A stretch of 64,000 nucleotides of DNA from an uncultured delta proteobacterium (GTDB lineage Bacteria > Desulfobacterota > BSN033 > UBA1163), in contig CAWHBU010000003.1 of the NCBI GenBank assembly GCA_963827685.1, positions 864,001-928,000 of the forward strand, written 5' to 3'. Positions within the stretch are counted from its first letter, which is position 1; every line of letters starts with the position of its first letter. Shown here in pieces: positions 34,424-56,322 of this stretch. The notes below the pieces were generated by a model. The model saw nothing but the letters and a program-made list of their open reading frames with translations. It ran no database searches and was not told where the DNA came from. Both the position numbers and the translations under genes were made by a program.

Positions 34424-34639
34424 CTATTCAATCACAGCGATCACTGCCTCTGCCTCGACCTCCTGACCTGCGGCCACATGAATCTCCTTCACCGTTCCGG
34501 TGACCGGAGCCACAATAGGCATCTCCATTTTCATCGCCTCTAATACAGCGACCTGATCATCCTCCTTGATCTTATCTCCCACCTTTACTGAAACTGAGAC
34601 AATCTTGCCTACCATCGGTACAGTCACTGGTGTCCCCAT
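34424..34639 (-). CDS. Stand-alone biotin carboxyl carrier protein, copy 2
   Basis: EAMKM motif; paralog of 573-788. Confidence 0.9.
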   Translation of the reverse strand: MGTPVTVPMVGKIVSVSVKVGDKIKEDDQVAVLEAMKMEMPIVAPVTGTVKEIHVAAGQEVEAEAVIAVIE

Positions 34640-35140
34640 GATATTCTCCTCCCAAGAAACAAATTTTTATTTAAAACCTCCCATTTCTTGCAATGGCGAT
34701 TTCTCGTTTTGTTTCCTGTCCTTTTGCAAACTTAGAATCCATGGAATCGCATTTTTGCGATTAGATTGTGCAATGAATAACAAACTCTTCCTTTTTTGTC
34801 AAGATAATTGAAATGGCGTCTCCGAGTTTTTGGCAGCCATACGGAGGTTCCCCAAGATTTTGAGGAAAGAAAGTTTAGTTAGCATTTTAGTTATGTTAGT
34901 TTTTCTGAACGATTGAAGGGAGATTTGATATCCTTCTTCCTTCAACATATCGATATTTGTGCATAATAACATTTCTTAAAACCTAAGGAAACTCCAGAAA
35001 AAGTTTGAAAAAGAATTCATCTATTGAATTTATCCCAAAAAAGATGCATAATTCCCCCACTCATTTAAGCACTAATCGAATGAAGGTCACTTCATTCGGT
35101 CATATTTTTCACATAGATATAATCGAAAGGCAGGACGGAG

Positions 35141-39769: not shown

Positions 39770-40183
39770 ATGGGGTTCGAGAAATTCGGAAGGAAAAGCT
39801 TTACGGCCGTCACCAAGACGGCAAAGTTTGTCGATCTTCTTGCAGAAGGGAAAATTGAAGGGACCGTTTGTAAAGATTGCGGTGCAAGATTCTTCCCTCC
39901 ACGGGCCGACTGCGCAAAATGTTTCTCAAAGAACATGGACTGGTTTGAGATGCCCAAGAAAGGCAAACTCGAAACCTTTACCACCGCCTATTATGCACCG
40001 TTTGGCTTTGAGGCGGACCCGCCCTATACCATGGGTGTTGTGGACTTTGGCAATGGTCTGAAGCTCTTCGCCCGGATGGCAAAAGACATAAAGCCTGAAG
40101 AGGTAAAGATGGGCATGGACGTGATCGTCAGACCTTTGAAATACGCAGATGATCAGCTTTCCTTTGAGATTGCGAAGGCCTGA
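39770..40183 (+). CDS. DUF35 Zn-ribbon/OB-fold thiolase partner
   Basis: CKDCG...FPPRADCAKC; OB-fold C-terminus. Confidence 0.9.
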   Translation: MGFEKFGRKSFTAVTKTAKFVDLLAEGKIEGTVCKDCGARFFPPRADCAKCFSKNMDWFEMPKKGKLETFTTAYYAPFGFEADPPYTMGVVDFGNGLKLFARMAKDIKPEEVKMGMDVIVRPLKYADDQLSFEIAKA

Positions 40184-40218
40184 CCGTCAGAATCTGCTAT
40201 CGGAGGCCAGGGTGATCC

Positions 40219-40476
40219 ATGTCCCCTCCATTTAATCGTCTTGACGGATACAGCATTTTCGATGATAAAGGCGAGGTGAAGCGTCTCGTCGAAGGCTTAA
40301 TCCGGGACAGGGACCCCGATGTAACCATTGAAAGTATGAGAAAGATGGATTATTGCTACCTCTTTACACTTTCTAAAAGAGGCATGACCACAGAAGTTGA
40401 ACTGCTCCGAGCTGGAATCGAAGAGAGCGGGGAGTGGAGAAAAGGGAAAATCGACGAAGCCCTCATCGGGCTTTAA
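40219..40476 (+). CDS. Hypothetical protein
   Basis: 85-aa ORF in the same direction; no recognisable motif. Confidence 0.4.
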   Translation: MSPPFNRLDGYSIFDDKGEVKRLVEGLIRDRDPDVTIESMRKMDYCYLFTLSKRGMTTEVELLRAGIEESGEWRKGKIDEALIGL

Positions 40477-40501
40477 CCCCTTTGTCTTTCGAAAAACCTT
40501 G

Positions 40502-41302
40502 TTACCGATACATCTCCTTGGCAGCCAAATTTTCAGGATCAACTTCGGTCGTTGAAAGATCAACGATCCACGTCCTGATTAAGGACGGACCCGCCCCTTC
40601 TCCCGAAGACTGCGTGACCCGATACTTATTCTTTCCGATCTCCTTCGCTTCATACTTCCATTTTAGATTTGGAAAAGATCGTGTTCTCTCTTCGATCATC
40701 CTCATTTCGACAGATCTCTTCTTACCCGTTGCGGGATCAGTCAGAGTGGGATGACTCCTTACCAACTCCACGGCCTTAGAAGCACGAGCCTTCGATTGAC
40801 TCAAACTTGTCTTGCTCGCACTTGCTTTCATCGGAACGGAGATGAGACTCCCTTCCGTAATCTTTATCTCCAAATAGTTCCCATCCGCACTCAAGTAGCC
40901 TATTTGACCCGTGTCAAATTTTACCTGATAGAAATTCATTGTCCCCAAACGATTCTTAACCACCTCCATAATGACGAGCCCTTCCTTCTCTCTCTTCACT
41001 CTCAATTTTCTTCCCAGATCATCCGGGGATTCATAGAACTCTGCGGGATTAACTGTCGGAACGGTCATCAACCGTTTGCCAATGTTTCTTTTCAATTTGG
41101 CAAGCTTCTCTTTTTCATACTCCTCGATGGCCGGAATAGGACCGACTTTCGAATCCTCCTTAGGAGAAGACCCTTCCTCATTCTTCGCCAATAGGGATAA
41201 AGAATCTTTAAGAGAATGCTGACCGAGGCACGGGTAGGTTGGAATGAAGGAGAAATAGAGAAAAGCAATGAATACGATCAAAATAGGCAGGCGGGTATTC
41301 AT
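40502..41302 (-). CDS. Hypothetical exported/membrane-anchored protein
   Basis: N-terminal hydrophobic segment; GGGAGG SD. Confidence 0.65.
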   Translation of the reverse strand: MNTRLPILIVFIAFLYFSFIPTYPCLGQHSLKDSLSLLAKNEEGSSPKEDSKVGPIPAIEEYEKEKLAKLKRNIGKRLMTVPTVNPAEFYESPDDLGRKLRVKREKEGLVIMEVVKNRLGTMNFYQVKFDTGQIGYLSADGNYLEIKITEGSLISVPMKASASKTSLSQSKARASKAVELVRSHPTLTDPATGKKRSVEMRMIEERTRSFPNLKWKYEAKEIGKNKYRVTQSSGEGAGPSLIRTWIVDLSTTEVDPENLAAKEMYR

Positions 41303-41330
41303 GGATCAATCCTCCCGTTAAATTATCGCA

Positions 41331-41346
41331 TGCAAATACGATGCCC
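41331..41346 (-). promoter_or_regulatory. Sigma54-type promoter candidate
   Basis: GGGCATCGTATTTGCA (GG-N10-GC) just upstream of 41302. Confidence 0.45.
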
Positions 41347-41438
41347 TCTTCCAAAATTCATAACTCATTGAAATTCCTAAATCCGTAAAGGAGTACTTTT
41401 AAGGAGCTTGATCCGAAACATATCTTTTGTCCAATTTT

Positions 41439-41550
41439 GTGAAGCTCCACGCCCTATAGGGCGGGGCTTCCCGGCGAGGTAGTTTCCGTTTGTATTGTGC
41501 CCCTCGACCCCACCCTAAAAGGGTAGGACCGGGGCAGTTGCCGGCCAAAA
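41439..41550. mobile_element. Short non-autonomous palindromic element (IS200/IS605-end- or REP-like)
   Basis: GAAGCTCCACGCCCTATAGGGCGGGGCTTC hairpin plus second TGCCCC...GGGGCA hairpin; no transposase. Confidence 0.5.
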
Positions 41551-41735
41551 TCATAATCTGTTGCAGGCAACACGCAAAACCCAGTGAGACGAAAGAAAGG
41601 AACAATTAGAAAACCAGAATGTTTCTTCCAACTGCAAAGCGTGCGGGTTAGCCTACGATAGAATTCGCTGATTTACGATTGAAAGAGAAAGTAATGGTAT
41701 TTAGTAAGTTGGAGCAGTTCTGAGATATTGGGTCA

Positions 41736-42866
41736 CTATCGCATACTTTTTAAAGTTGTCTCCTGTTGATAAAGTTGCCATTCAAATAGCTCCAAAAGCC
41801 AAATTGTGCTCTGGCTTAAGAATCCGTCGATTAATAGCCAATATCTCGATTCTTGTAACGCAGCAACGCTATGTGGGTCGTAACGGACCAAAGAACTAAG
41901 CCAGAAAATCAAAGAATAAAGGATGGAGATTTGAGGAAGTCGCAACGGAAATTGCGTTTGGACTGGTATTTTGTAGACAAGCTTACCATCTTCCATGTGA
42001 GGAAATAGATTCATTGCTTTTATCTCATTTTCGATAAATCTAAAAAGCCCCTCTCTCTTCTTCTTGGGTATTTTCTTCGGCTTTTGGAGTTCAAAAGTCA
42101 ATAAATTATCTTTATATGATTGAACCTGAATATACTTACTGTCCCTATATGTAATTATCTCAAGGAACTTTTGACGAGTTAATTTTAAGTCCTTTAAATC
42201 ATCTCGACTGACTGAGAAGCGCATCCAGTAATCATTACTGGCCGGGGCAACAAAAGTATCTATCTTTTTGAGGGAGACTAACCTGATTGGTTCGTTATAA
42301 GTTCTTTCATATTCCGTACCCGTATCAGCTGAATAAGCAAACAGGTCCTTTATTTTTAGCTTCGTAGGATTTCGGATAGTAACTGGGTTTCCAATGACTG
42401 CTTCATATAATTCGTGCCATACGCCTCTGGTCGTGAGGCTCACGAATTCTTTTTCCATATTTACTAAATAGTCCATATTTGGTGTCCAGCTTATTCCGTG
42501 TCGATAATTCTCATTTGTCTGGTGAAAATTTGGCTTCTTAATTTCACAGACAGCCTTTGCAAGGTTGAGAAAGGCGTAATAATAGAAAAGAGGTGCTGTA
42601 TTTGGTTTAGCGACACGGGCAGCTTGGTAGAATTCATTTGCTTGGGTCAAATATACTTTCAAATTGTTTGCAATGGCCAAACGCGCACTCCTTTTTTTTA
42701 TTCCATAATAATTAAATAAAACCATATCCGCTACTTCCTTAGCGCATAGATGACTAATAGATGACCATACTATCTTCTCAGGATCTCCGATGGTTTGTTC
42801 TTGGATTTGCCATGGCAAGAAGGAAAATCCAGAGGATTCTCCAATTCGGGGTTTGGGAAGCACCAT
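41736..42866 (-). CDS. YaaC-like protein
   Basis: PLFYYYAFLNLAKA...RHG and LSSLVRYDP motifs; AT-rich. Confidence 0.7.
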   Translation of the reverse strand: MVLPKPRIGESSGFSFLPWQIQEQTIGDPEKIVWSSISHLCAKEVADMVLFNYYGIKKRSARLAIANNLKVYLTQANEFYQAARVAKPNTAPLFYYYAFLNLAKAVCEIKKPNFHQTNENYRHGISWTPNMDYLVNMEKEFVSLTTRGVWHELYEAVIGNPVTIRNPTKLKIKDLFAYSADTGTEYERTYNEPIRLVSLKKIDTFVAPASNDYWMRFSVSRDDLKDLKLTRQKFLEIITYRDSKYIQVQSYKDNLLTFELQKPKKIPKKKREGLFRFIENEIKAMNLFPHMEDGKLVYKIPVQTQFPLRLPQISILYSLIFWLSSLVRYDPHSVAALQESRYWLLIDGFLSQSTIWLLELFEWQLYQQETTLKSMR

Positions 42867-42962
42867 TTTATTGACCTACTATATCTTTTAGTTTGGGTAA
42901 CAAAGCCTTACCATTTGAAATCTATAACTTTGGAGAGCTTCTGTCAACCAACGATTTCAGGA

Positions 42963-43023
42963 AGGAGTCTTCATTTTCCCAAATCCCACCAATCAAAAAA
43001 ACCATGTTGAGGCTTTCACCTAC
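42963..43023. repeat. 59-bp duplicated coding relic containing an empty IS110 target (copy 2 at 51500-51558)
   Basis: 51/59 identical by manual alignment; ends TTTCAC-CT-AC. Confidence 0.8.
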
Positions 43024-43148
43024 CTCGGTCCAAGGAAATTCAGGAGATTGGCGATTATTGACAGAAATATTCATAAATAAAAAAACAAGGCGAAGCAGAC
43101 TGTAAATGGCAGCCTACCTCGCCCTGCAAGATTAGAGTCTTGCCTTTC

Positions 43149-44213
43149 TTAAACTGTAAACAGGTATCTCGTTCCAACAGTGTTTAGGATAAACTGGCCT
43201 GGCATTTCCCTATCAAAGACGGTAATTGCTTCATATCCCGTACAGTGTGTAGGAACAATATAGTCTGGATTGACAGCCTTAATATCTGCTACTGTCCTCT
43301 GGATAAGCTCTGGTTTAGCTCCAGTCAAATGGAATCCACCCATGACTGCATGAACCTTATCAATACCTGTCATTTTTTGGGCATGCTTCACGATATTGAC
43401 AATCCCAACGTGTGCACAGCCTACGAGGACGATTAATCCTTTTCCTTTCAGATTCAGAACTACCGCATACTCCCCTATGAAATTGTCTGGCACTAATTTC
43501 CCTCCTCTTTCGATTAAAAGATAAGGAGAACCTTTTTCATACTCCGTCACTCTTTCTACGCTCCCTGTCAAATAAGCTCCAGGAACTATTGGGGTTGGGT
43601 CTTTGATTTCCACAATGTTAACAAAACCCAAGCGTTCAACATTTTCTCTTTTTAATTGTCCCAGGCTGACAACTCCAGCTGGAAATTGACCAAATCTTTC
43701 AACAAAACCCTCCTCTCCCATGTATAGAGGGATTCCCTTGCGGAATTCTTCTTTTTTCGATTTTAGGATTTCAAGGAATGTCCCCCAATGGTCAAAGTGC
43801 CCGTGACTCAATCCAAGAGCTTCTACTGTCCTGAAGTCAATATTTAATAGCTCCATATTCCTGCTGACCCCTTGAAAATCTACACCGTAATCAAACAGGA
43901 AGGAATGGGGATTGCCACTTAACACCGTTTCAATGTGATAGGACAAACCATGTTCGGCATGCAGATTTAATTTATAAATATCAGTCCCAGGCTTGATCCC
44001 GATTCCATATCTTCTGGCAATTTTATAATGCTGTTTGAGTGCATCATAGTAATTGTCCGTGATGACTGTAACCGTAGCTTTCTCCACCTCTGGAATCTTG
44101 ACTGCCCCATAAGCCAAATTCATTCCCCCTTTGACCATATCACCTGCTAAGACCAGAGCACCTGTGGCTAAAGAGGCCTTTACGAATTCTCTTCGATTCA
44201 TCTTCTTTTCCAT
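43149..44213 (-). CDS. Tat-exported MBL-fold metallohydrolase
   Basis: NRREFVK; AEHGLS, SHGHFDH, GCAH, GGFHL, PTHCTG. Confidence 0.85.
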   Translation of the reverse strand: MEKKMNRREFVKASLATGALVLAGDMVKGGMNLAYGAVKIPEVEKATVTVITDNYYDALKQHYKIARRYGIGIKPGTDIYKLNLHAEHGLSYHIETVLSGNPHSFLFDYGVDFQGVSRNMELLNIDFRTVEALGLSHGHFDHWGTFLEILKSKKEEFRKGIPLYMGEEGFVERFGQFPAGVVSLGQLKRENVERLGFVNIVEIKDPTPIVPGAYLTGSVERVTEYEKGSPYLLIERGGKLVPDNFIGEYAVVLNLKGKGLIVLVGCAHVGIVNIVKHAQKMTGIDKVHAVMGGFHLTGAKPELIQRTVADIKAVNPDYIVPTHCTGYEAITVFDREMPGQFILNTVGTRYLFTV

Positions 44214-44580
44214 AATTATTACCTCCTTGTTGTGTATTTGCTGAGATTCTCCTAAGCAAAATTAGAATATCAAAAGTGACCTTCTTGTCAATACCTAAAA
44301 TGAGATTGTGAAAATTATCTTTTTGAGGATTACCCTTTGAAAGGTTGTATAGAGGGGTAATTTCGAGGATTCACGATAACAGGAAGGAATCGTCGGAGCT
44401 TCTACGTGGGGAAACCCTTCAATGGGTGAGCTCTTGGCTAAAGCGGGGTTCTAATGAAACGGAGAAGGTAATTGCACCAAGAAGAGGACACACACTTAAG
44501 CTGAGGAAAACGAGCAGGCATAAGGTTTAAGGTCTGCTCGTTTTCAACTTAAATTGTCCTGAACGAAAGTTAATCTAAGA

Positions 44581-44617
44581 GAGCTGTCAATTGAACCCTC
44601 GACCTACTGATTACGAA
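44581..44617 (-). pseudogene. tRNA-Thr(CGT) 3'-half fragment
   Basis: Minus strand TT-CGT-AA-TCAGT-AGGTC-GAGGG-TTCAATT...CAGCTC gives anticodon loop, variable loop and T-arm 5' side; no D-arm or 5' half. Confidence 0.7.
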
Positions 44618-44911
44618 ACCTGAAAAATGATATTTATTGCATCTGGTGTATTTTACTTACTTATGGCTTATTAGGGTCTTTCTCTGTCTTGATTACTCTT
44701 TGTTCATAAGGTTCAGACATAAGCCGCTTCCAATCATCAAGTGGTCTGTCACCTTTGCCACTCTCAGGATGCCATTCCTTAACCCGTCTTGGCTTAGATT
44801 TACTGTTTGTCTTAATTGCCATTTGTCTTTGCCTCTTTTTGAATTTTAACATACTTCGTCAGTTTGTACCAGACCCTATTAGGCCTTTCCCCTTTATCTG
44901 AGACCTCAAAC

Positions 44912-45014
44912 TCAGCGTCGTTCGATCATTCGCCTGGTATCGGATTCGATAAGAAATCCCTTTTTTCTCTTCCAGGATAGGGGGCTCTTGATAAATATCG
45001 AAGAGGGTAACTGC
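44912..45014 (-). pseudogene. pheT: Fragment of PheT C-terminal anticodon-binding domain
   Basis: AVTLFDIYQEPPILEEKKGISYRIRYQANDRT. Confidence 0.7.
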
Positions 45015-45289
45015 TCCAAAAAGAGGACACACACTTAAGATTGATGTTAGCGGTAGGCTTTTTTTCCCCTTGTGCAAAGGCTCTAAAAATGCACAATCTG
45101 TGATGCCTGCATAGAATTATGCCAATATGCCTAAGACTTGGAATAAGGCCATTTTTTAAATCTTAGGAGCACTTTTTCCATCAATTTACTAACCAACATC
45201 TTACAACTTCTTAACATTGCACGAGTTTTTAAACACTCTGATTCCAAGCCCGATAAGCCTACTTGTAGTTCACGTGATGGAACAGTAAT

Positions 45290-45305
45290 TGGCATAATGT
45301 TTGCT
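45290..45305 (+). promoter_or_regulatory. Sigma54 promoter
   Basis: TGGCATAATGTTTGCT matches -24/-12 TGGCA-N7-TTGC. Confidence 0.65.
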
Positions 45306-45354
45306 CTTAACCACCTTAGAGGAAAGTAAAATGACCGTAAAAAAAGGAGACAAG

Positions 45355-45462
45355 ATGAAAAAGAGTAGAAAGAAGCAGGCAAAGAAGGCGAAAGATCCGA
45401 AGAAAGTAGCGGCGGCAAAGAAAGGGTGGAAGACCATTAGAACGAAAGCGAAGAAACGGTAA
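45355..45462 (+). CDS. 35-aa Lys/Arg-rich microprotein (not in ORF track)
   Basis: AAGGAG SD; MKKSRKKQAKKAKDPKKVAAAKKGWKTIRTKAKKR; promoter upstream and hairpin downstream. Confidence 0.6.
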   Translation: MKKSRKKQAKKAKDPKKVAAAKKGWKTIRTKAKKR

Positions 45463-45873
45463 GAACTTTTTGTTCTCCGAAACAATGCTTCCGAGGGTTG
45501 AGAAGGAAACGAGCAGGCACAAAGTTTAAGGTCTGCTCGTTTTACTCAAATTTTCCTAAACGAAACTTAATCCTAAAGAGATAGTGGATTGACTCCTCGA
45601 CCTAACGAGTACACTTACTTATCTTCAGTCCAAGATGAGTGATAGATTCAACGATTACGGGTAGAAATGCGCACAAAAAAGGCAGGACCATTTCTGACCC
45701 TGCCTTTAATATCTATCTCGCTAATTCGATTTACCCCTGCTCATGGTGGTTCTGGGTCTCTATCTGCCCGCCAATTCTGAAGAACAAACTTGACATGATA
45801 CGATCTCTGCGAGAACTCCCCTTGCGGGTAAAACGACGGGCAGGAAGATCTCCAGGGATGCTCAGGGCGACTA

Positions 45874-47115
45874 CTATTGCATCTTGGCCCGACACGCCAA
45901 AGCAGTGCCTACCGGCAGGCAGGCGTTGCAGGATATACATTCCGCCTTGTCTGGTCCCTCTCCGGATCGCCAAAGGATGGGGAGATCCGGCTGGCGGATA
46001 AGGGGCCTGGACATTGAGACGAAATCCGCCGCCTTTGAAGTCAACACTTCTTCGATTTTACTAAATGACCTGAGCCCACCCACCAGGATGACCGTAGCGT
46101 TCGTCTTTTCTTTGAGCGCCTTGCCCCCCTGTAGGAAGTAGGCTTCTTGATCCTGAGCCTTGATGCCAGTCCGCGACTCGGGAACCATCACAGGAAGCCA
46201 GCCCAGCTCCTCCTTCTTCCGGGTCACTGCCTCCCACATGCCTCCGCTGGTCTCAATAGCGGCGAACCCAACCTCTGAGAGCATTTTCCCCACCCGGACC
46301 GCTTCATTGAGGTCTACACCTCCAGGAAGGAAGTCTGTGGTGTTTATTTTGATCAAGATGGGAAAACGATCACCGACCTTCCTTCTGGCGCGTTGATAGA
46401 TATCTTTAATAATCCTGGTCCGATTCTCAGTCGAACCTCCGTATTGATCCTCACGTTGATTGGTCCGTGGCGACAAAAAAGTGCTTAAAAGATAGCCGTG
46501 AGCAGCATGTAATTGAACCCCGTCAAAACCAGCCTCTTGTGCCCGCCGTACGCCCTCGGCAAAGGCCTCGATGATTTCGTTTATTTCGTCCAGGGTCAAC
46601 GCCCTTGGCGTCCGACCAAAGGTAGCATCGTAGACCGCGGATGGCGCGGTTGGCTCCACCACAGGGGGCGCTTCTCTCGGAGGTGCCATGACCTCAGGGT
46701 GCTTTTGAATATAAGCCAAAAAGGCTGGCGGGAGTACCGGCATTAATTTGGCAGCGTCTTCTCGATGAATGACCTGCCTTCCAGGATGGACCAATTGCAG
46801 CATCACCCTGCAGTCCGGAGCAGCTTCGTGCACTGCCTGTGGGATCTTTCGAAGACTCGCGATGAAATCGTCGTTATCCGCCCGTATGCTGAGATCGGGT
46901 GCCAGCGCCTTGGAGTATACGCCCGCGTAGCCGGTGATTATGAGACCCACACCCCCTTTGGCCAAAGTACCGTAAAGGTCAACCAAAAAGTCCGATACCT
47001 CACCTTTACTTGTGGCTGCGCTCTCGTAGGTGGCCGAACGAACTAAACGATTTTTGATTTCGAGCTGTCCAATGCGTGCCGGAGTGAAGACAATCGAGTC
47101 CTTTCTGATAACCAT
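45874..47115 (-). CDS. NADH:flavin oxidoreductase (Old Yellow Enzyme family)
   Basis: NRLVRSAT, AGFDGVQLHAAHGYLLSTFLSP, NQREDQYGGS, C-terminal CISCNAC. Confidence 0.9.
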   Translation of the reverse strand: MVIRKDSIVFTPARIGQLEIKNRLVRSATYESAATSKGEVSDFLVDLYGTLAKGGVGLIITGYAGVYSKALAPDLSIRADNDDFIASLRKIPQAVHEAAPDCRVMLQLVHPGRQVIHREDAAKLMPVLPPAFLAYIQKHPEVMAPPREAPPVVEPTAPSAVYDATFGRTPRALTLDEINEIIEAFAEGVRRAQEAGFDGVQLHAAHGYLLSTFLSPRTNQREDQYGGSTENRTRIIKDIYQRARRKVGDRFPILIKINTTDFLPGGVDLNEAVRVGKMLSEVGFAAIETSGGMWEAVTRKKEELGWLPVMVPESRTGIKAQDQEAYFLQGGKALKEKTNATVILVGGLRSFSKIEEVLTSKAADFVSMSRPLIRQPDLPILWRSGEGPDKAECISCNACLPVGTALACRAKMQ

Positions 47116-47132
47116 ATCCCCTCCTTGGATTT

Positions 47133-47432
47133 TTAACCCATTCCAATTGCTTTAAGAGCTTCCTTAGCTTCAAGCCATATGTTTAAAGAATAGGTGAGGC
47201 CAGGCACCCCATAATATTTTGTGTAACGGGCAGTGAGAACCTCCATCGCCGCTGAAACTTTGGATTTGTCGAACTCATAAATAACAATGGATTTAATTCC
47301 CGCCCCTACTTCGCTGCTGACATAAGGTCCTTTCATGGTTATGTATGCAGGTAGAGGGGGTTGCTCAATAAAACGCTTAGCGTGTTCTTTTACACTTTCC
47401 GGGGGATACGACAAAATACCTATGATAACCAT
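47133..47432 (-). CDS. Hypothetical protein (99 aa)
   Basis: AGGAGG SD before ATG 47432; same direction as the OYE gene. Confidence 0.6.
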   Translation of the reverse strand: MVIIGILSYPPESVKEHAKRFIEQPPLPAYITMKGPYVSSEVGAGIKSIVIYEFDKSKVSAAMEVLTARYTKYYGVPGLTYSLNIWLEAKEALKAIGMG

Positions 47433-47777
47433 TTTTAACCTCCTTTTCTGTGGCAAAGAAATAGATGAGTTCATTTAATCGGACTAAAATCCCGAACATC
47501 AAAAAAGTATGCCCCCAAGAAGTCATAGCAACCCCTTAGAGGCTTCATATGGGCATCTTGTGATAACCCCATTTCATACGGCACCCAAGAAGGTTAGAGG
47601 TTAAGTTGTAAGGTTAATTAGGGACAGGTGGGAAATACTATAAATACACCATACTCTCATCTGCATGGAAAATCAAGGGAAAAATTCCATCCATAATTTA
47701 CCCCATATTGCTGATTTTCGTTTGAAATGTTGCATAGAAGGGCAGAAATCGAAAAACAAGATTACAGTCAACTATTT

Positions 47778-48969
47778 TTATATAGCCTCCTTTACATTGA
47801 AACATGTTCGCTGAGAAAGCATTGCAAAGATCACTCGAATGAGTTTATGAGCTACAGCAAATAAGGCTTTTTGAGGGGGGAGTCCTTCCTTCCTTCTTTC
47901 TCCTCAGGAAATAGGCTTTAAAGAAAACATTTTGAGACACCACAGAGGTCGTCATAAGATAAATCGCTCTTCTTAAATGCCGATTGCCTCGTTTCGACAG
48001 TTTGCTGGCACCCAGAAATTTCCCTGACTGATGAATCGAAGGATCCAATCCCGCAAAGGCAATCAGCTTCTTAGAAGAAGTAAAATTCTTCACCTCCCCC
48101 ACTTCCGCAAGAAAAGGGACAGCGGTATTTGGACCTACTCCCTTGATCGATTGGAGGATCTTCAAATCTTCTACTCTCGTCGCTTTGCATAAGTCGGTCA
48201 GAAGTTTAGTCAATCCCTCCATCCGCTCTTGAAGATGTAACAAGGTGGCAATCTTCCCTTGAACAATGACCTCTTTTGCTGGACTCGCCACGGCCACGGA
48301 ACTCTGGGCCGCCTTAACGATATCCTCCGCCGTAAACGTCAGTTTGTCCCCCACATAGGGCCCCCTCAACGCCTTTGCGATCGCCTTCCGTTTCGCCCCT
48401 CTCACCAAACGAGCCGATGGATACTGCTGCAAAAAACGAAGCATCACACCTGTATAGAGATTCCCGATGGATTCAAGCTCCGGAAAGATCGTTCTCAGTA
48501 CCCTCTTGATCTCTACCTTGGTCGCTGAAATGAGATGACAGAGTGACTCCCTTTCTCGGGACAGATCCCTCAGATCCTGATGATCTTGGGAAATAGAGAA
48601 TTGCGAAATCTCTTCATGGTGATCCAAAAGAAATCTCGCGATCGTCAGAGCGTCCTTTTTATCCGTCTTCGTTTTCCTCAGGGAAAGCTTCGCAAAATTG
48701 GAAATCAACAGAGGATTCACCACGACCGTACGGATTCCTTGGGAACTAAGAAACGAGAAAAGATTGATATGATAGCACCCGGTAGACTCCATGGCCACGA
48801 TCATCTGATCCAGTCTCTCACCATGAGAAGAAAGGGCCTTCAGGAACTCTGAAAACCCATGGGAGTTCATTTCATAAGTCCCCGAGAAATGCCCTTTGCC
48901 CTCCTCATCCAGGCCAGCTGCAGAGAAGAAATCCTTTGAAACATCCGCTCCAACCAAAAGCTTATACAT
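47778..48969 (-). pseudogene. IS110 recombinase/transposase with C-terminal frameshift
   Basis: GADVSK, MESTG, KTDKKDA, FAGLDPSIHQSG; an extra 4 nt in the AAGG run near 47885 diverts from ...EGLPPQKALFAVAHKLIRVIFAML. Confidence 0.85.
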
Positions 48970-48989
48970 CTTTCTCCCTCCTTTCCTGA

Positions 48990-49135
48990 ATCGGCAGGAC
49001 AATGCCTCCCAACCAAACCTCCACCGTGACCAGGGTTCACAGACCCAATCAACCTATTAGGGTTAAGGGAGGCAGGGAACACACTGTACTAAGGGTTCTC
49101 AGACCCAGGAAGTAGTTCGTTCTCCTGCCTTTCCA
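48990..49135 (-). ncRNA. Predicted bridge RNA of IS110 element A
   Basis: Two-loop scaffold shared with 51622-51762; guides ACTTCCT and TACAG match the element's own flanks. Confidence 0.75.
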
Positions 49136-49267
49136 ATCTCTGATTCTTCTATAACACAATTGTTAGTAGGAGGAAGTTATCTTCAGAAAGAAGGATGAGG
49201 ATTTTATCTTCAATTCAGGCTGACCTGCGTTTATGGGTAGGCCGAAGACCAAAGATGGGAAGAAATC

Positions 49268-51307
49268 TTATCTCCTTCTAATCTTCATTGCAGAAAGGTA
49301 TACGGCTACTCCCACAATAAGAAATAAACCAACTACCATTCCAAAGGCTATCCCTGTCAAATAGGTGCCCCTGGATAGGAGCGCAATAGGATTCCAGCTC
49401 GGTTCTCTGATAATTCGACCAAGTTTCCCGCTATATTTTTCAGGAATGTCGGGAATCCCATCGCCTTTCTTGCCCGGAAAGCTCTTCACATACTCCATGA
49501 GGCAAACCCACTCCTTGAGTTCCTGAATTCCAGGTTTTTCCTTATCTCTATCCACCCTTAACGGGAGCAGAAGATCAAAGGGATTGCCCTTTAAAAATTT
49601 TGTGGCGATTGCGTTTCCATTTCGATCCTTCGGGACAATTTCAAGAATACCATAGGTAAAACGACCCACAAATTTGAGAAAGGTCGCGTTATAGAGGTTG
49701 GCTGCAACTCTATAAAGGGTCTTATTCGATTCCGAATAATCGAGAGGTTCATATCCTTCCTCCTCACTTCCCATCAAGATATCCGTTACCCTGTCAAAGA
49801 TCACCCGATTAGGGTTGTATTTGAATCTTAATCCTGAAACCTGGAGAAAGTAGTTGCTCCCTTTTTTGGGATAGATGCTCGTCGACACCTCGAGGATCTT
49901 CTTAATCTCGTGAGCGTAGAGGTAACAAGTGATAAGAGGATATCCCATGGTATCCTCCCCTCTGCTGATCCCGAGCGGGATGGTGCGAAAGAGATCGCAC
50001 ACGGCTATTCTCCCTGTCTTCCCCTTGAGAAGATCATCACGGATCACTCCGTTTGATTCAATGGCAGCCACCACCTTGGTTACAGGATCCTTCTGGTCAT
50101 AATCCAATCGATTAATCGCCCATCGCATAGCATCCGTGATGAGGTTTCCTAAATTGCATTCCTCCTCCAGAAGTCGCAAGTCAAATTGTGTTTTTCCGAT
50201 TACCTCGTAGAAGCTCACATGAAGATCCTTGAGAAACTTCTCATTCACGATCCCAATGTAGGATTCGATTCTCTTTTGAATCTTCTCATCCCCGAGAATG
50301 GTATCATCGATATCCACCAGCCTATATCCTTTCAACTTTACCTTACCCTTTTCATAGGCGATATCAAGGACACCCACATGTTCCCCAAAGGCACCCGCTT
50401 GAACAATCATCGTTTCATTCACGATCAGAGGGGTTTTCAGTTTTGTATGGGTATGGCCGCTTACAATAATATCAATGCCTGGCACCTCCCTCGCCAATCG
50501 ATCATCTTCGGAGAGAGACTTTTTTTGTTGAATACCGCTGTGCGACAGACAGATGACCATATCGACCTTTTCCTTCTCTCTCAGTGTCTTGACCATTTCA
50601 CGAGAAGTGTCGATGGGATCCCTGAATTTGACAGGGGCTGCAAAGGGCGAGACCTCCGCCGCCTCTTTTCCCAATATCCCGTAAATCCCGATCCTGATTC
50701 CCTGCATTTCCTTGATGATATAAGGTTTTACGAGACCCAGGTTGAATATCTCTTCAAGCGTATCATCTTCACGGTTCTGTTTATCGAAAATGACATTCGA
50801 AAAAACAATCTCTGGCATTCCCCCTTTCTGATGAGCCGAAGTGAGCATTTTCGCCAACCCCGAAGGCATGAGATCAAATTCATGGTTCCCCAGAGTCACC
50901 ACGTCATATCCCATCTCTTTCAACAATCGCAGCTCCAGCCCTTCCTCGCGAGCCACCATATGGAAGAGCGAACCCATAAGGAAGTCGCCGGCGTCTAAGA
51001 CAAGAGTTGGATTCGTTCTCTTGGCCTTCTCCGATCTTATCGTTGCCGCTATCCGGGCCCAGCCACCTACCGTTGCGTCATCATGGGTTTTTAAAGGAGT
51101 GTAGTCAATGTTCGGTGCAAAGCCGAGAAGATGGGAATGAAGATCATTGGTATGTAGGATGGTGAGGAGCCTTTCCTCCCCAAGAACCCGTATAGGATTG
51201 AGAATGGTACCAATCACCAATATCCAAAGAAATGCCCTCATTCCTTTCAACTCCATCGAGGTGAGGAGAGAACAAAATCCCTTTGGCCGCCATGACATGG
51301 TTGTCAA
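49268..51307 (-). CDS. 5'-nucleotidase / UDP-sugar hydrolase family, C-terminally membrane anchored
   Basis: LHTNDLHSH, LDAGD, LGNHEFD, VSGHTH; C-terminal TM; real start may be slightly downstream. Confidence 0.9.
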   Translation of the reverse strand: MTTMSWRPKGFCSLLTSMELKGMRAFLWILVIGTILNPIRVLGEERLLTILHTNDLHSHLLGFAPNIDYTPLKTHDDATVGGWARIAATIRSEKAKRTNPTLVLDAGDFLMGSLFHMVAREEGLELRLLKEMGYDVVTLGNHEFDLMPSGLAKMLTSAHQKGGMPEIVFSNVIFDKQNREDDTLEEIFNLGLVKPYIIKEMQGIRIGIYGILGKEAAEVSPFAAPVKFRDPIDTSREMVKTLREKEKVDMVICLSHSGIQQKKSLSEDDRLAREVPGIDIIVSGHTHTKLKTPLIVNETMIVQAGAFGEHVGVLDIAYEKGKVKLKGYRLVDIDDTILGDEKIQKRIESYIGIVNEKFLKDLHVSFYEVIGKTQFDLRLLEEECNLGNLITDAMRWAINRLDYDQKDPVTKVVAAIESNGVIRDDLLKGKTGRIAVCDLFRTIPLGISRGEDTMGYPLITCYLYAHEIKKILEVSTSIYPKKGSNYFLQVSGLRFKYNPNRVIFDRVTDILMGSEEEGYEPLDYSESNKTLYRVAANLYNATFLKFVGRFTYGILEIVPKDRNGNAIATKFLKGNPFDLLLPLRVDRDKEKPGIQELKEWVCLMEYVKSFPGKKGDGIPDIPEKYSGKLGRIIREPSWNPIALLSRGTYLTGIAFGMVVGLFLIVGVAVYLSAMKIRRR

Positions 51308-51621
51308 TCCTCAATTATGGGTTTTGATATACACCCCATTTTGCATTTTTGCCCGATAAAATCATTGGGAACGGTGTTATATTGCGTCAATATAATCTAC
51401 AAAGGAATTATTCAGATGGGCCTGGAGTATATCCCCGCTATCCGTTTGAGGTTGTAATATACACCTTTTTTAGGGTTTTGGGAAATGAATAGTCCAGCAA
51501 GAAGTCCTCTTTTTTCCAAATCCCGCCGATCAAAAAAGCCATGTTAAGGCTTTCACCTCCTACTCATCAAGTATGTTATAAGGGCATGACATAATGAATG
51601 GGTAAAGCCATTCAAGAGGAA

Positions 51622-51762
51622 GGGGCAGGAGGACTTGATTTTCACCTGGGTCATTGAATCCTTTTTGTAGTGTGTCCCCTGCCTCCCCAAACCCTGATAG
51701 GTTGGTTGGGTCTAAAGAACCCTTGTTATGATGGAGGTTTGGTGGGGAGGCTCATCCTGCCT
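51622..51762 (+). ncRNA. Predicted bridge RNA of IS110 element B
   Basis: Same scaffold; guides TTTCACCT (51640-51647) and GTAG (51667-51670) match the element's own flanks. Confidence 0.75.
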
Positions 51763-51794
51763 ATTCTCTAACAATTTAAAAAGGAGGTGTAACA

Positions 51795-52988
51795 GTGTCG
51801 ACACTTTTCGTTGGGATTGACGTTTCTAAGGATTATGCTTCAGCTCAAGGGTTAGATCGTGAAGGGAAGAAACTCTTTTATCTTGAGTTTTCAATGGATG
51901 GAGAGGGATTTTCTCGGTTTCTGGACAGGGTGAAGGCCCATTGTGGGAATCTTTCAGAGGTTACCGTGGCGATGGAATCCACGGGTTGTTACCACATCAA
52001 TCTATTTTCCTTTCTTTCTTCGGAAGGGATTCCCTGTGTGGTGATCAACCCTCTGCTGATTAGCAATTTTGCCAGGTTATCTTTAAGGAAGACCAAGACG
52101 GATAAGAAGGATGCTCTTACCATTGCTCAGTTCCTTTTGGCTCACAAAGATTCCCTTTCCAAGGTCGCGTTTTCACAGAATAGTCAGGATCTCAAGGACC
52201 TGGCCAGAGAGCGAGAATCTCTGACGGTGATGATCTCGGGGTTAAAGAATGACATCCGGAGGCTCCTCAAGATGACTTTTCCGGAGCTGGAGCATCGGTG
52301 TAAGATCTTTACGGAGACGATGCTCCACGTTCTGATCAAGTTTCCTTCGGCCAGGACCCTAACAGCGGCAAAGCCCAAAGAGATTGCCAAGGCCCTGATC
52401 CATGTCGAAGGGAAAAGGAAACGAGTATTGATCAGTGCCGAAGAGATTATTCAAATGGCCAAGGCCTCTGTGGCCACTGACAGTGCAGCCAAGGAACTAA
52501 TCCTCTCAGAGAAGATTTCCACCCTTCTTTATCTCGAAGAGAAGAGGAAAAAGATCACAGGGGTATTGGTGAAGACCTGCCAGTCGATGAGAGTGGAGGA
52601 TCTCGAGATTATCACCTCCATCGATGGGATCAAGCAGATTAACGGTTCTACTTTTTTAGCGGAGTTGGGAGAGATGAACCATTTCAAATCCCACAAGCAT
52701 GTGATTGCTTTTGCAGGGCTTGATCCCTCCATTCACCAGTCAGGTCAATATGAGGGAATCAGCAGAATATCCAAGAGAGGAAATCGTCACCTAAGACGAG
52801 TGATTTTCCTTATGACCACTTGTGTGGTAAGGAGCAATAATATTTTCAGGCAATATTTTCTTAAAAGGAAGGCAGAAGGATTACCGCCTAAAAAAGCAAT
52901 TCTTGCCACGGCTCATAAATTGCTGAGGGTCCTTTTTGCCATGCTAACAACTAAATCTTACTTTCAGAAGGAGGTGGTCGAAGTATAG
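51795..52988 (+). CDS. IS110 recombinase/transposase (intact)
   Basis: GIDVSK, MESTG, KTDKKDA, FAGLDPSIHQSG, SKRGN, AHKLLRV. Confidence 0.95.
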   Translation: MSTLFVGIDVSKDYASAQGLDREGKKLFYLEFSMDGEGFSRFLDRVKAHCGNLSEVTVAMESTGCYHINLFSFLSSEGIPCVVINPLLISNFARLSLRKTKTDKKDALTIAQFLLAHKDSLSKVAFSQNSQDLKDLARERESLTVMISGLKNDIRRLLKMTFPELEHRCKIFTETMLHVLIKFPSARTLTAAKPKEIAKALIHVEGKRKRVLISAEEIIQMAKASVATDSAAKELILSEKISTLLYLEEKRKKITGVLVKTCQSMRVEDLEIITSIDGIKQINGSTFLAELGEMNHFKSHKHVIAFAGLDPSIHQSGQYEGISRISKRGNRHLRRVIFLMTTCVVRSNNIFRQYFLKRKAEGLPPKKAILATAHKLLRVLFAMLTTKSYFQKEVVEV

Positions 52989-53205
52989 TTGACTACTACT
53001 TTTCAATCCAGGATAATCCCCAAAGCCGACGATTACGGGCTGAAATCAAGTACTTCAATACAAAAGATGAAAACCATATCGAAACATTTTTACCTGCTTA
53101 AAAACAGAAGATAGATAGCAGATATTCAAACTTCTGCGATATCATAATTCATGGTCTTCTCCCGTTTGAGCCCTTACGGTGTCTAATAGGATTGAGTTAC
53201 TCCGA

Positions 53206-53238
53206 TACGGGGACGGGTTTCAAAACCCGCCCCTGTAC
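53206..53238. repeat. REP-like palindrome
   Basis: TACGGGGACGGGTTT-C-AAAACCCGCCCCTGTA. Confidence 0.5.
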
Positions 53239-53244
53239 TGCCTT

Positions 53245-53529
53245 TTAGTACTCCGGAGGCATAGGTGGGGGCGGTGTCTCCTTTTTCGGTTTCTCAGCCA
53301 CAACCGCCTCTGAGGTGATCAAAAGAGAGGCCACGCTGGCCGCATTCTGTAAGGCTAACCTCACAACCTTCGTTGGGTCGATGATCCCTGTCTCCATCAT
53401 ATTTACATACTCTTATTTATCGGCATTTAATCCGAAGGCCCCTTTCTCCTGTTTCACCTTCTCCACCGCTACGGAGCCTTCCTTCCCGGCGTTCTCAGCT
53501 ATCTGACGAATGGGTTCAAGGGCCCTCAA
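53245..53529 (-). pseudogene. groL: 3'-terminal fragment of chaperonin groEL with internal stop
   Basis: [15 protein letters not shown]...NADK*EY...[34 protein letters not shown]. Confidence 0.85.
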
Positions 53530-53643
53530 GCCGCCAGCCTAAGGGTAGTTAGTTAAACGTCTATCTAATTTCGATGAAAGGATTCTCTCATCAGGCGTTC
53601 CTTTGGGGTCGGTTGACCGGATAGAGGGTTGAGGTAATGTTTT

Positions 53644-54726
53644 TCATAAAGCACGATCCATTAATGGAAGTGAAATTCCAAATGACTCACCAAGGACCGC
53701 CAACTCTTTTATCGTGGCCGGAACCAGAGGTATCCCATCTTTCAGCCGTTCTGTCTCGGTTCTCAATTCCGGTTCCCCAGGCATCAGAATCTCTGCGGCA
53801 TTCTGCGCTTTCGCGCTTTCTTTAATGCTTTTGATGTAACGGTCCATCTCTTTCTTAAAGTTTTCCCTTCCGATGAAGCAGTCTGGGTCGATGGCCATGA
53901 AGGAATGACAAGTGCCCTGAATACCCGTTTTATCCTCTTCATAGAGGCTTTTGATCTCTTTGGTCAGTTTGCCACCCGTGAGCACGGCGGTGAGCATTTC
54001 ATGGACCAGCACCATTCCATAGCCTTTATGGCCCCCCACCGGCGTCAGGGATCCCCCTCCTTCATACCCTTGATAGGGGTCGTCAGTCGGCAAGCCGTCT
54101 TTGTTAACGGCCCACCCCAGGGGAATTTTCTCCCCTTTTTTGCGGGCTAGGATGAGTTTCCCAGACGACACAACACTCAATGAAAAATCCAGAACTACAG
54201 GAGGGTATTGATCGGCGGGAATGGCATAAGCCATAGGATTATTGCCTATAATTCTCTCTCGTCCGCCCCAGGGGGACATCATGGGAGCAGAGTTGGAGAC
54301 GACGTAGCCGATGAAATCCTTCTGCAGAGCCATTATGGGGAAGAGGCCGGCCACGCCGAAGTGACCGCTGTCTTTCACCGAGACCCAACCGATGCCATAC
54401 TCTTCCGCCTTCGCGATCGCCTTCTCCATGCCCCGGTAGGCGGCGATATGTCCCATCGACCCGTGAGCTTCCAGGAAAACCGTGGGGCCTTTTTCCCTGA
54501 CGGCCGTCAGTTTGCACTCTTTGCGTACATACCCTTTCTGCAGCCTCAGGATATAAATAGGCAGGCGGGTGACGCCATGGGTTTCGATGCCCCTTAGGTC
54601 CGACCTTACCAGTAGGTCGGCTACAATCTCTGCATCGGCAGCGGGCACCCCTGCTTTCATGTAGGCCTGACAGCAGAAATCCTTAAGGTCGGCGAACAAA
54701 ACCCGCCGGACAGTATTTTTCTCCAT
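53644..54726 (-). CDS. Ldh_2-family (malate/L-sulfolactate/ureidoglycolate dehydrogenase-like) oxidoreductase
   Basis: DLRGIETHG, SGHFG, IGNNP, GGHKGYG, MPGEPE. Confidence 0.9.
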   Translation of the reverse strand: MEKNTVRRVLFADLKDFCCQAYMKAGVPAADAEIVADLLVRSDLRGIETHGVTRLPIYILRLQKGYVRKECKLTAVREKGPTVFLEAHGSMGHIAAYRGMEKAIAKAEEYGIGWVSVKDSGHFGVAGLFPIMALQKDFIGYVVSNSAPMMSPWGGRERIIGNNPMAYAIPADQYPPVVLDFSLSVVSSGKLILARKKGEKIPLGWAVNKDGLPTDDPYQGYEGGGSLTPVGGHKGYGMVLVHEMLTAVLTGGKLTKEIKSLYEEDKTGIQGTCHSFMAIDPDCFIGRENFKKEMDRYIKSIKESAKAQNAAEILMPGEPELRTETERLKDGIPLVPATIKELAVLGESFGISLPLMDRAL

Positions 54727-54888
54727 AACATGCCTCCTTGGAAGAAAGTGTCATTTTCTGTGTTAGGTGTCAGTCTTGGTCTTTTGCACCCACTCTCAGG
54801 GGACCTTAACGATCCCCATTCCCACCAATCCAAAATTGATGATACCTTGATGAAGACTCTCAATTTGACAGACTTTCTCCCCTGTCTA

Positions 54889-56322
54889 TCATTCAATTCC
54901 AGCCAGACGTTTAGCACATCTCTTCTTATAATCGATATCTGACTCCCTGAAGATTGTGACCCTGTGGGCCGCCGGTGAACCTCCTCCATGAATATCTGAA
55001 ATCGTATCCGCACTCTCCATGGCCATCTTTTCGATCAAACGAAGCATCTTGATCCTTTTCTCCACCGGCACTCCGGTAGCACCCTTCAAATATTTTTTCA
55101 GCAATTCTCCAATTTCGGAGTTTTCGAAATCCCTATCCGAAGGCAGATCGGCCACAAACCCACCTGTCACATCGATGAGAAGGCGGGTGACTTCAGCCAT
55201 CTCTTTCCCTTCGTGGATCTTGGAGGCATTGGCCAAGATCGGATCGATGAAATAGGTCCCCGAAGACTCTTTCTTCCCTTCATAAGAGGCTGCCAGGCTA
55301 CAACCGTAAAGGGTCTCTGCCATATGAATCATGTTGATAACCTTTTCCCTGTGTTGGCTTACTTTTGTAGTTCCGTTATACTCCATCATCAGCAGGGCTG
55401 CGCCAGTCATGACATCGATTTTCCCCGATTTACAACCGCCGTGGGATTGACGATGAAAGGCAGAAAAGCGGCTCACCACCTCTCCCGTAAATTCAACTTC
55501 TCTGAACATGAAGACTCGATCCCATGGTACCAACACCTCGTCAAAAATGAGTGTAGGACAGTATTTGCTATATCGGATATTACCGCAATCCACTCCTTCG
55601 ATCTCACGAGTGTCCATGGAATTTCTTCCCACCACATGGATGAGCCCTTCCGTATCCGAGGAAATGGCAAAAGCTAAGGCATAATCCTCATCCCCTTTCT
55701 GCATCACCCTTGTGGGAAGTACAATAATTTCGTGAGCACTCAAGGACCCTGTCTGGTGAACCTTTGCTCCCCTCACGATGATCCCTTCTTTGGTTTGTTC
55801 GACCACGCGGAGGTACATATCTTTATCGGGCTGTTCGTGAGGGCTCAGATTACGATCTCCTTTTACATCGGTCACGCTGGCATTTCCTGTCAGATCATTT
55901 TTCTGCATGTATTTCAGGAATTCCATGAACCGATCATAGTAATGGGTCCCGTATTTTTTATCGATGTCATAGGTCACAATCGAAAGGGTACAGAGGCAGT
56001 CCAAGCCCGTGCATCTCTGGTGGCATGTTCCTACATAGCCTCCCAAGATACGGTTGATCTTCACACGCATCACAAGATCTTCAATGGACTGTGGGGGCAG
56101 GGTAAATCGATTGATATGCTCTCCTGTTAAAGGAGAGATGGTGGTAATGAGATCCTTATATTTTTCGTGATTCGCCAACTCATAAGTTGCACCTGTGGCA
56201 TTAATCCCTGCGCGAATACGGGGATTATCCACCACATTCTCTATCTTCTCGCCAAACATGTAGGCCGTAGGTTTCAATCTTCTCAAACTCACCAGGTATT
56301 GTTCAAATGTCTTTAGGGCCAT
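54889..56322 (-). CDS. 4-hydroxybutyryl-CoA dehydratase (AbfD)-like FAD/[4Fe-4S] enzyme
   Basis: CHQRC, TDVKGDR, GAKVHQTG, HRQSHGGCK, HGGGSP. Confidence 0.8.
   Translation of the reverse strand: MALKTFEQYLVSLRRLKPTAYMFGEKIENVVDNPRIRAGINATGATYELANHEKYKDLITTISPLTGEHINRFTLPPQSIEDLVMRVKINRILGGYVGTCHQRCTGLDCLCTLSIVTYDIDKKYGTHYYDRFMEFLKYMQKNDLTGNASVTDVKGDRNLSPHEQPDKDMYLRVVEQTKEGIIVRGAKVHQTGSLSAHEIIVLPTRVMQKGDEDYALAFAISSDTEGLIHVVGRNSMDTREIEGVDCGNIRYSKYCPTLIFDEVLVPWDRVFMFREVEFTGEVVSRFSAFHRQSHGGCKSGKIDVMTGAALLMMEYNGTTKVSQHREKVINMIHMAETLYGCSLAASYEGKKESSGTYFIDPILANASKIHEGKEMAEVTRLLIDVTGGFVADLPSDRDFENSEIGELLKKYLKGATGVPVEKRIKMLRLIEKMAMESADTISDIHGGGSPAAHRVTIFRESDIDYKKRCAKRLAGIE

Follow-up and report, generated by a model that had tools for sequence, protein, structure and literature searches.

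The REP and BIME mosaic elements of enterobacteria and pseudomonads are intergenic, occur in many copies and are composed of modules in a fixed order, and REPs carry a 5' GTAG. ISPpu10 and ISPpu9 of Pseudomonas putida, elements of the IS110 type, insert in REP sequences, and the target of ISPpu10 includes a GC-rich 5' stem-loop that adds specificity (PMC1525189; bioRxiv 10.64898/2026.03.19.712850). IS621 of Escherichia coli is directed by a bridge RNA; its left target guide is 9 nt long and corresponds to the top strand of the left target plus the core, the right target guide is 4 nt long and is the complement of the core plus the right target, and the wild-type target is ATCAGGCCTAC, i.e. ATCAGGC-CT-AC (Durrant et al. 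2024, PMC11208160).

The window analyzed here, a stretch of 64,000 nt (genome contig C3:864001-928000), contains two IS110 elements, called A and B, and several copies of an intergenic repeat. The features are listed in Table 1. The main result concerns the repeat copy at 43 kb: positions 43013-43023 are most probably (about 0.8) an empty, guide-compatible landing site for element B, located in a copy of an intergenic mosaic repeat. The occupied paralogue of this site is found 8.5 kb away, and such a pair would be a clean illustration from nature of targeting by bridge RNA, in sediment bacteria that have not been cultured.

Table 1. Position of the features in the window (T-run hairpins, guides and targets are predictions).
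Feature	Position	Strand	Basis
Sigma-70-like promoter match TTGACA-17-TAGATT in the 62-nt core of the repeat	42919..42947	-	10/12 positions
Open frame of 50 codons, MNISVNN...SPKL, spanning the empty site, probably not a gene	42922..43074	-	no Pfam family, no homologue
Repeat unit of ~71 nt (the 'relic' of the original prediction), from GTAGGTG... to ...CTTCCTGAA on the minus strand	42953..43023	-	genome and 5 genus relatives
CTTCCTG block, unoccupied target of the element A type (CTTC-CT-G), reads CTCCTTC-CT-GAAA	42958..42964	-	
Unoccupied 11-nt target of B, made up of the left target CTTTCAC, the core CT (43020-43021) and the right target AC	43013..43023	+	direct reading
Hairpin and T run resembling an intrinsic terminator, downstream of the metallo-beta-lactamase-fold gene (43149-44213, minus strand)	43085..43127	-	
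IS110 element A, 1403 nt; recombinase 47845-49002	47768..49170	-	Pfam
Second repeat copy, portion to the left of B, interrupted after CT (51557-51558)	51452..51558	-	
IS110 element B, 1434 nt, CT at 51557-51558 and 52993-52994	51559..52992	+	
Left target guide of B, TTTTCACCT	51639..51647	+	placed as the IS621 left target guide (PMC11208160)
Right target guide of B, GTAG (51667-51670), possible extension TTTGTAG pairing with CT-ACAAA/G	51664..51670	+	
Left donor guide of B, AGGTTGGTT	51699..51707	+	by inspection
Right donor guide of B, GGAG, complement of CT-CC at the right-end/left-end junction	51733..51736	+	by inspection
IS110 recombinase of B, 397 aa	51795..52988	+	Pfam
Second repeat copy, portion to the right of B: AC and diverged sequence that contains the CGATTACGGGCTGAAAT block	52995..53060	-	

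The limits of B were fixed by comparing the flanks of its three copies in the genome, two of them identical and one nearly so, which have the same ends. CT borders all three at both ends, with AC coming next, and apart from the CT the left and right flanks are unrelated to each other. This comparison agreed with the original prediction as to the element boundary and the CT core, and also as to the interruption of the second repeat copy exactly at CT, since that copy ends with 51557-51558 and B starts at 51559. The recombinase of B matched the Pfam families DEDD_Tnp_IS110 (PF01548, E 7.3e-39) and Transposase_20 (PF02371, E 6.2e-25), the right end of the element extends only 4 nt past the stop codon, and no inverted repeats were reported by the repeat finder in the window. 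By these features of its sequence, B is an IS110 element.

The organization of B is close to that of IS621 (PMC11208160): a recombinase with the same two Pfam domains, a non-coding left end, two predicted guide loops, a CT core on both sides, a target of 7 nt + CT + AC (TTTTCAC-CT-AC is predicted for B) and the location of this target in a multi-copy intergenic repeat. As in IS621, the right end plus the core forms a -35-like TTGACT, 17 nt from TTATAA of the left end (by inspection), a pair that would be formed only in the circle. B differs from IS621 in its guide sequences, in the repeat that is targeted, in the short right end and in a possibly longer right target guide of 7 nt. Like ISPpu10 and ISPpu9, B is of the IS110 type and its insertions are confined to copies of a single conserved sequence lying between genes, which serves as a sort of safe harbour. 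The flanks folded here differ from the described ISPpu10 target: when 12 distinct left flanks (one of them twice) were folded, no consistent 5' stem-loop of the ISPpu10 kind was found among them (z from -2.1 to +1.0). B resembles both IS621 and ISPpu10 in being apparently directed by a bridge RNA to an intergenic sequence present in many copies, the ordinary habit of the IS110 family. This supports the view that such elements persist by targeting sequences of this kind. What the locus adds to the known biology of these elements is the pair of an occupied and an empty paralogue, and two lineages that split one repeat between them.

In the predicted fold, an internal loop closed by an inner hairpin GGGTC..ATCC has the left target guide of B on its 5' side and the right target guide on its other side, and the two donor guides fall in the second internal loop of the left end. 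Both target-guide segments, TTTTCACCT and (TTT)GTAG, were recovered in the left end and match TTTCAC-CT-AC, in agreement with the original prediction. The donor loop was assigned by inspection only: the left donor guide pairs with the donor TAGTTGA-CT through three G-T/U-G wobbles, and GGAG with CT-CC. The predicted target is TTTTCAC-CT-AC(AAA/G), and the predicted donor is TAGTTGA-CT-CC, the junction of the two ends of B. A consensus fold of five left ends gave two stem-loops whose internal loops hold the guide segments, with compensatory changes in only 3 of the 48 predicted pairs; the fold energy of the B left end, as a single sequence, was no better than that of shuffles (z -0.54), and nothing was detected by Rfam at E<=1 in 40000-56000. 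In the proposed mechanism, B would encode a DEDD/serine recombinase and a bridge RNA within its 236-nt left end, the second loop would pair with the donor junction made on circularisation of the element, and strand exchange at CT would leave B inserted with no target duplication beyond the core. Expression of the RNA, its pairing and recombination are those that we infer by analogy with IS621.

The similarity of the two repeat copies was as strong as originally noted. Segments 42963-43021 and 51500-51558 share 51 of 59 bases in an ungapped alignment, for which the chance expectation in a 64-kb window is ~1e-12 by a binomial estimate, and the repeat finder extended the pair to 42915-43021 and 51452-51558 (73% over 107 nt). 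To the left of 42963, beyond the 107-nt repeat, the similarity was no better than in shuffles, 568 of 1000 of which reached the score. To the right, after removing B in silico, the similarity to the 43 kb copy was weak (score 20, compared with 11.4 +/- 4.2 in shuffles) and was reached by 47 of 1000 shuffles.

The 43 kb copy reads GGCTTTCAC-CT-AC-CTCGG, so that the uninterrupted continuation TTTCAC-CT-AC that had been reported for it was recovered as CTTTCAC-CT-AC. It is identical over 13 nt, GGCTTTCAC-CT-AC, to the site occupied by B (51546-51558 plus 52995-52996) and can pair with both target guides of B if a single G-U wobble is allowed at position 1. The site is located in the intergenic spacer between the terminator-like hairpin and the promoter-like stretch that precedes a YaaC-like gene (41736-42866, minus strand; Pfam YaaC).

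The three copies of B in the genome occupy GGCTTTCAC-CT-ACTAC, GGACTTCAC-CT-ACAAG and GGAATACAC-CT-ACAAA; the target parts of these sites read CTTTCAC-CT-ACTAC, ACTTCAC-CT-ACAAG and AATACAC-CT-ACAAA. In the genus relatives, eight distinct B-like left junctions were found (left-end identity to B of 80-99%; three of them are contig ends in the relative G004), seven ending in CAC-CT and one in AAC-CT, and all three distinct right junctions were CT-ACAAG or CT-ACAAA. The motif is thus shared by 3/3 genome copies and by 8/8 left junctions of the relatives, and the outcome that the original prediction had named as speaking against it, copies of B at sites unrelated to TTTCAC-CT-AC, was not observed in this set.

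Additionally, shortened relatives of B were observed. In L020/L036 (G002:C17:45729-46165), a B-like element of ~440 nt stands at ACTTCAC-CT / CT-ACAAAG and has positions 1-203 of the left end joined to 1200-1434 of the right end, with no recombinase gene; it is possible that this is a non-autonomous derivative keeping the bridge RNA. In L027 (G019), a truncated B-like left end is fused to repeat sequence.

The rank of the empty site among the possible targets was lower than originally proposed. Eighteen sites of the form [CT][CT]TTCAC-CT-AC in the genome pair fully with the 11-nt guide when wobble is allowed, about 6 or 7 of them within copies of the repeat family (by eye). Four of the eighteen are perfect, TTTTCACCTAC, and all four are empty; the counts of 10- and 11-mer targets in the genome were close to chance (20 versus 11, 4 versus 3 and 8 versus 2.6). 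Therefore, a guide match alone does not predict use. The second insertion site of the original prediction kept its credible guide match and lost its singularity, being 1 of 18 and lacking the CTACAAG/A match on the right. The 51.5 kb copy shows a single past use of a GGCTTTCAC-CT-AC site and, as the 43 kb copy is the closest paralogue of it, the latter is a plausible but not privileged future site. The empty site is a credible target, one of several.

The right side of the targets raises the question of whether the empty site fits the 11-nt guide and is nevertheless unusable, B needing a longer right pairing, CT-ACAAG/A, or some other context, in which case neither insertion nor rearrangement would be expected at this position. 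The right flank is CTACAAG or CTACAAA at 5 of the 6 distinct B-like right junctions of the genome and its relatives, which would pair with TTTGTAG, and the perfect 11-mers elsewhere are empty, as just described. The empty site continues as CT-AC-CTC, without the AAG/AAA extension. Among the contigs of four public runs, no B ends at 43020/43021 and no occupied allele were found, which is weak evidence and says nothing on absence. The single exception among the right junctions, ACTAC (52995-52999), argues in the opposite direction: it also lacks the extension, it belongs to the paralogue with the identical 13 nt, and it is occupied. Besides, IS621 works with a right target guide of 4 nt (PMC11208160). 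A requirement for longer pairing was considered rather unlikely.

In the same public runs, no contig of run X1 bridges 42993-43023. A large number of contigs depart from the window sequence at 42959/60 and 43022/23, as expected of paralogous repeat copies, and four loose-end strings taken from the contigs are absent from this genome. One contig of 186 nt (run X4, record 26) is identical to 42992-43023 and continues with ~30 letters, 23 of 30 of which agree with the right flank of B, 52997-53026 (by eye); it may be a B-free version of a copy like that at 51.5 kb, from another strain or organism.

Element A provided a comparison for the guide assignment. The recombinases of A and B are 55% identical, their ends are nearly the same (...TAGTTGA-CT, CCTACT...), and so are the donor guides, A having AGGTTGATT in place of the left donor guide of B. 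The differences between the two elements in both target guides correspond exactly to those between their flanks: the target guides of A are CTACTTCCT and GTACAG, and its flanks read CTTCTTC-CT-GTAC and TAACTTC-CT-GTAA. In the window, the insertion site of A is CTTC-CT-GTAA, within a third member of this repeat family, whose part on the right flank is covered by an nhmmer match (genome C3:911767-911641). The element (flanks 47640-47767 and 49171-49267) directly follows the stop codon of a 679-aa 5'-nucleotidase-like gene, and a second copy, 99.4% identical, is located on contig C1 near 68.2-69.6 kb. In the relatives and in other MAGs, elements resembling A occupy CTTC-CT-GAA/GTA, followed by the same repeat core. 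The lineage of A uses the neighbouring block of the same repeat, CTTC-CT-G(T/A)A, on the other strand. In the 43 kb copy this block mismatches the right guide of A (GAAA vs GTAC). A and B are two sister IS110 lineages whose predicted target guides have diverged to use two blocks of one repeat family.

The relation between guides and flanks was extended to 80 related loci from public MAGs; the target loop was parsed by pattern in 28 of them, and the remaining 52 lay outside the test. In non-redundant pairs, the mean number of non-core matches in the left target was 4.96 of 7, against 3.51 +/- 0.32 after permutation (reached by 0 of 5000), and that of the right target was 2.93 of 4, against 2.00 +/- 0.25 (1 of 5000), figures that overstate independence because the related elements are kin. 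Clear agreement of guide and flank was seen, among others, in L099 (guide segment TTGCAACT, flank ATGCAACT), L128 (TTATAG and CTATAA), L060 and L066 (TCAG and CTGA) and L096 (GACTACAG and CTGTAGTC). One misfit was detected, L053, with right flank CTGA and guide GTAG. Within the parsed loci and with this exception, the predicted target guides match the insertion sites and covary with them, as expected of IS110 elements, and these guide/target pairs can be taken into standard plasmid assays.

The sequence targeted by both lineages is dispersed in the genome. The 59-nt segment recurs in six or more places at 75-90% identity, and the ~71-nt unit has copies of 78-92% identity in the genome and in five genus relatives, with the same limits throughout. 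Profile searches of the genome gave 21 matches at E<1e-3 for the module CACCTAC...GATTACGGnTTGAAAG and 53 nhmmer hits at E<0.01 for a five-copy model, and a strict repeat pattern was matched 19 times, compared with 0 in the shuffled genome. Forty-five copies share a 62-nt core, CTTCCTGaAaTC ... aTGCAACATTTCAAnnGGTAATC, and 41 of them lie clear of any ORF of at least 110 aa. On the minus strand the modules follow a fixed order: ...TTTCAAnCCGTAATC, ~30 nt, GTAGGTG (the B target on the other strand), a variable stretch of 20-60 nt, CTTCCTG (the A target), -35/-10-like hexamers and again TTTCAAnnGGTAATC. From these data, the repeat is a mosaic intergenic repeat that appears to provide a gene-free landing zone for IS110 elements.

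The original prediction had regarded the 59-nt repeat as the relic of a duplicated, decayed protein-coding gene (GESLNM[V/A]FLIGGIW), into one copy of which B had inserted. The frame is open in both copies of the window, and in the 43 kb copy AGGTGA and an ATG precede MVFLIGGIW... within the 50-codon ORF. It was correct that 4 of the 8 differences are synonymous in this minus-strand frame, but the observation carries no weight, since at least 4 of 8 are expected with P ~0.16 under random placement of the changes and a plus-strand frame gives 5 of 8. Other copies of the repeat carry indels of 1 nt and other non-triplet lengths, stops, or ACG instead of ATG. The translated search that had been proposed as a check was performed in six frames on 41 genomes and gave 14 matches, all within the genus, in open frames of only 22-87 aa, 9 of them with internal stops. 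Searches of 5.8 billion clusters, over proteins of 27-88 aa and of 89-2000 aa, revealed no homologue, Pfam gave no family, and all the copies are intergenic. At the locus orthologous to the 50-codon frame in genome G008, ACG stands for ATG, and an indel and an in-frame TAG are present. With no conserved frame, no protein homologue and a dispersed intergenic distribution, the decayed-gene reading is rejected on the sequence evidence as highly improbable, and hence a pseudogene should not be annotated here.

The mosaic repeat meets the description of REP/BIME sequences in having many intergenic copies, and the block at which B inserts shows GTAG... when read on the opposite strand, which resembles the 5' GTAG of REPs. 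It differs from them in its longer units (62-190 nt), which contain promoter-like hexamers, and in that neither a conserved palindrome nor a RAYT flanked by repeats was found: the flanks of CACCTAC and CTTCCTG were no more self-complementary than those of control motifs. A placement of the targets in a hairpin loop, with a stem GACTT/AAGTC round CACCTAC or CTTCCTG, was considered and discarded, the complementarity of the flanks being equal to that of five control motifs. The 25 Y1_Tnp matches of the genome correspond to 21 IS200-like copies and 4 divergent ORFs, only one of which has a GTAGGTG close by, a single one at 220 nt.

The promoter-like and terminator-like modules of the family are the less understood part of the locus. 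They would be explained if the repeat were a shared regulatory module, either a promoter plus leader or a small-RNA gene with its terminator, that IS110 exploits as a conserved sequence, instead of a selfish or neutral element of the REP/MITE kind. The 62-nt core has a -35/-10-like pair, and its two most conserved positions coincide with those expected for A-11 and T-7 of a sigma-70 -10 box. Some copies read TTGACC-17-TATATT with a gene 95-130 nt after, and the match of the 43 kb copy precedes the YaaC-like gene. After GTAGGTG, four copies have a hairpin AAAGCC-N7-GGCTTT followed by a T run, and a fifth shows one compensatory change. Several results do not favor this interpretation. Gene orientation is only mildly biased, the upstream ORF being co-directional in 29 of 45 copies and the nearest downstream ORF in 27 of 45; no conserved RNA fold of the 62-nt core was obtained with RNAalifold on either strand; promoter-like matches in the region were no commoner than in shuffles; and the inner segment differs completely between orthologous loci. 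A regulatory module is possible, although somewhat doubtful, and the repeat is treated here as a mosaic intergenic family used by the two elements.

The orthologous locus of G008 keeps the terminator-like hairpin, the TTTCA..GTAATC module, GTAGG and the CTTCCTG core; from GTAGG to CTTCCTG its sequence is unrelated, and it does not preserve the 50-codon frame. The ends of this inner segment of ~60 nt fall within a few bases of the CT cores of both lineages, GT-AG-GTG for B and CTTC-CT-G for A; in G008 it is replaced by unrelated sequence between the retained flanking modules, and the same segment is found at other loci of several genomes with 78-92% identity. On this pattern, and with the nearly identical donor ends and donor guides of A and B, it could be conceived that these short intergenic cassettes are carried or exchanged from one landing pad to another by the bridge recombinases, which we regard as very improbable. 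If such swapping occurred, IS110 activity would have helped to generate the mosaic repeat and would not only have found a target in it.

Outside the genome, two MAGs labelled "delta proteobacterium" gave 12 and 27 matches to the strict pattern, compared with 0 in the controls. One of them, the only one matching the query, is a close relative, in which the Ldh_2-family protein (360 aa, 53647-54726, minus strand) is 75% identical, and a spread of the repeat across phyla was therefore not shown. Repeat-like flanks beside IS110 elements were also seen, by eye only, in MAGs titled Syntrophaceae, Thermodesulfovibrionales and Nitrospirota.

A relationship to CRISPR, suggested by the resemblance of GATTACGGnTTGAAAG to a repeat end, was discarded after a k-mer scan that found no array and only two tandem repeats. 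Eight exact tandem copies of a 66-nt unit are located at C3:1158448-1158975, outside the window. The Rfam search of four other repeat-bearing loci gave only an unrelated, sub-threshold c-di-GMP-I-GGC match and a chance match to twister-sister. The former (L013 2259-2336, C8:49258-49335, minus strand; 49.9 bits with a gathering score of 59, E 1.8e-9) is upstream of a dienelactone-hydrolase-like ORF, in a contig region with repeat units before several small genes.

Regarding the IS200-like elements, 18 identical copies of ~545 nt (Y1_Tnp, 143 bits) were detected on contigs C1, C2, C3, C4, C5, C6 and C9 (e.g. C4:636157-636519). They end in a GC-rich hairpin plus TTTACT, and their flanks are unrelated to the repeat family. 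A second Y1 type is present in 3 copies, and the 4 divergent ORFs are single and encode 170-334 aa.

Moreover, other features were observed around the empty site and elsewhere in the window. The metallo-beta-lactamase-fold gene has an orthologue in G008 (L142 1108-2150, G008:C53) that consists of two ORFs of 225 and 122 aa, which may be due to a frameshift or to an assembly error. Positions 44279-45668 form a 1.4-kb stretch without long ORFs, with direct repeats at a spacing of ~500 nt (44460-44544, 44999-45039 and 45502-45543) that include GC-rich hairpins followed by T runs; two weak matches to the repeat-family model are found in it (C3:908279-908351 and C3:909608-909668). Two further pairs of direct repeats, 574-801 / 34425-34652 and 21629-21705 / 24780-24856, have 75-77% identity, and the second of them resembles paralogous cysteine-rich (Fe-S type) coding sequence.
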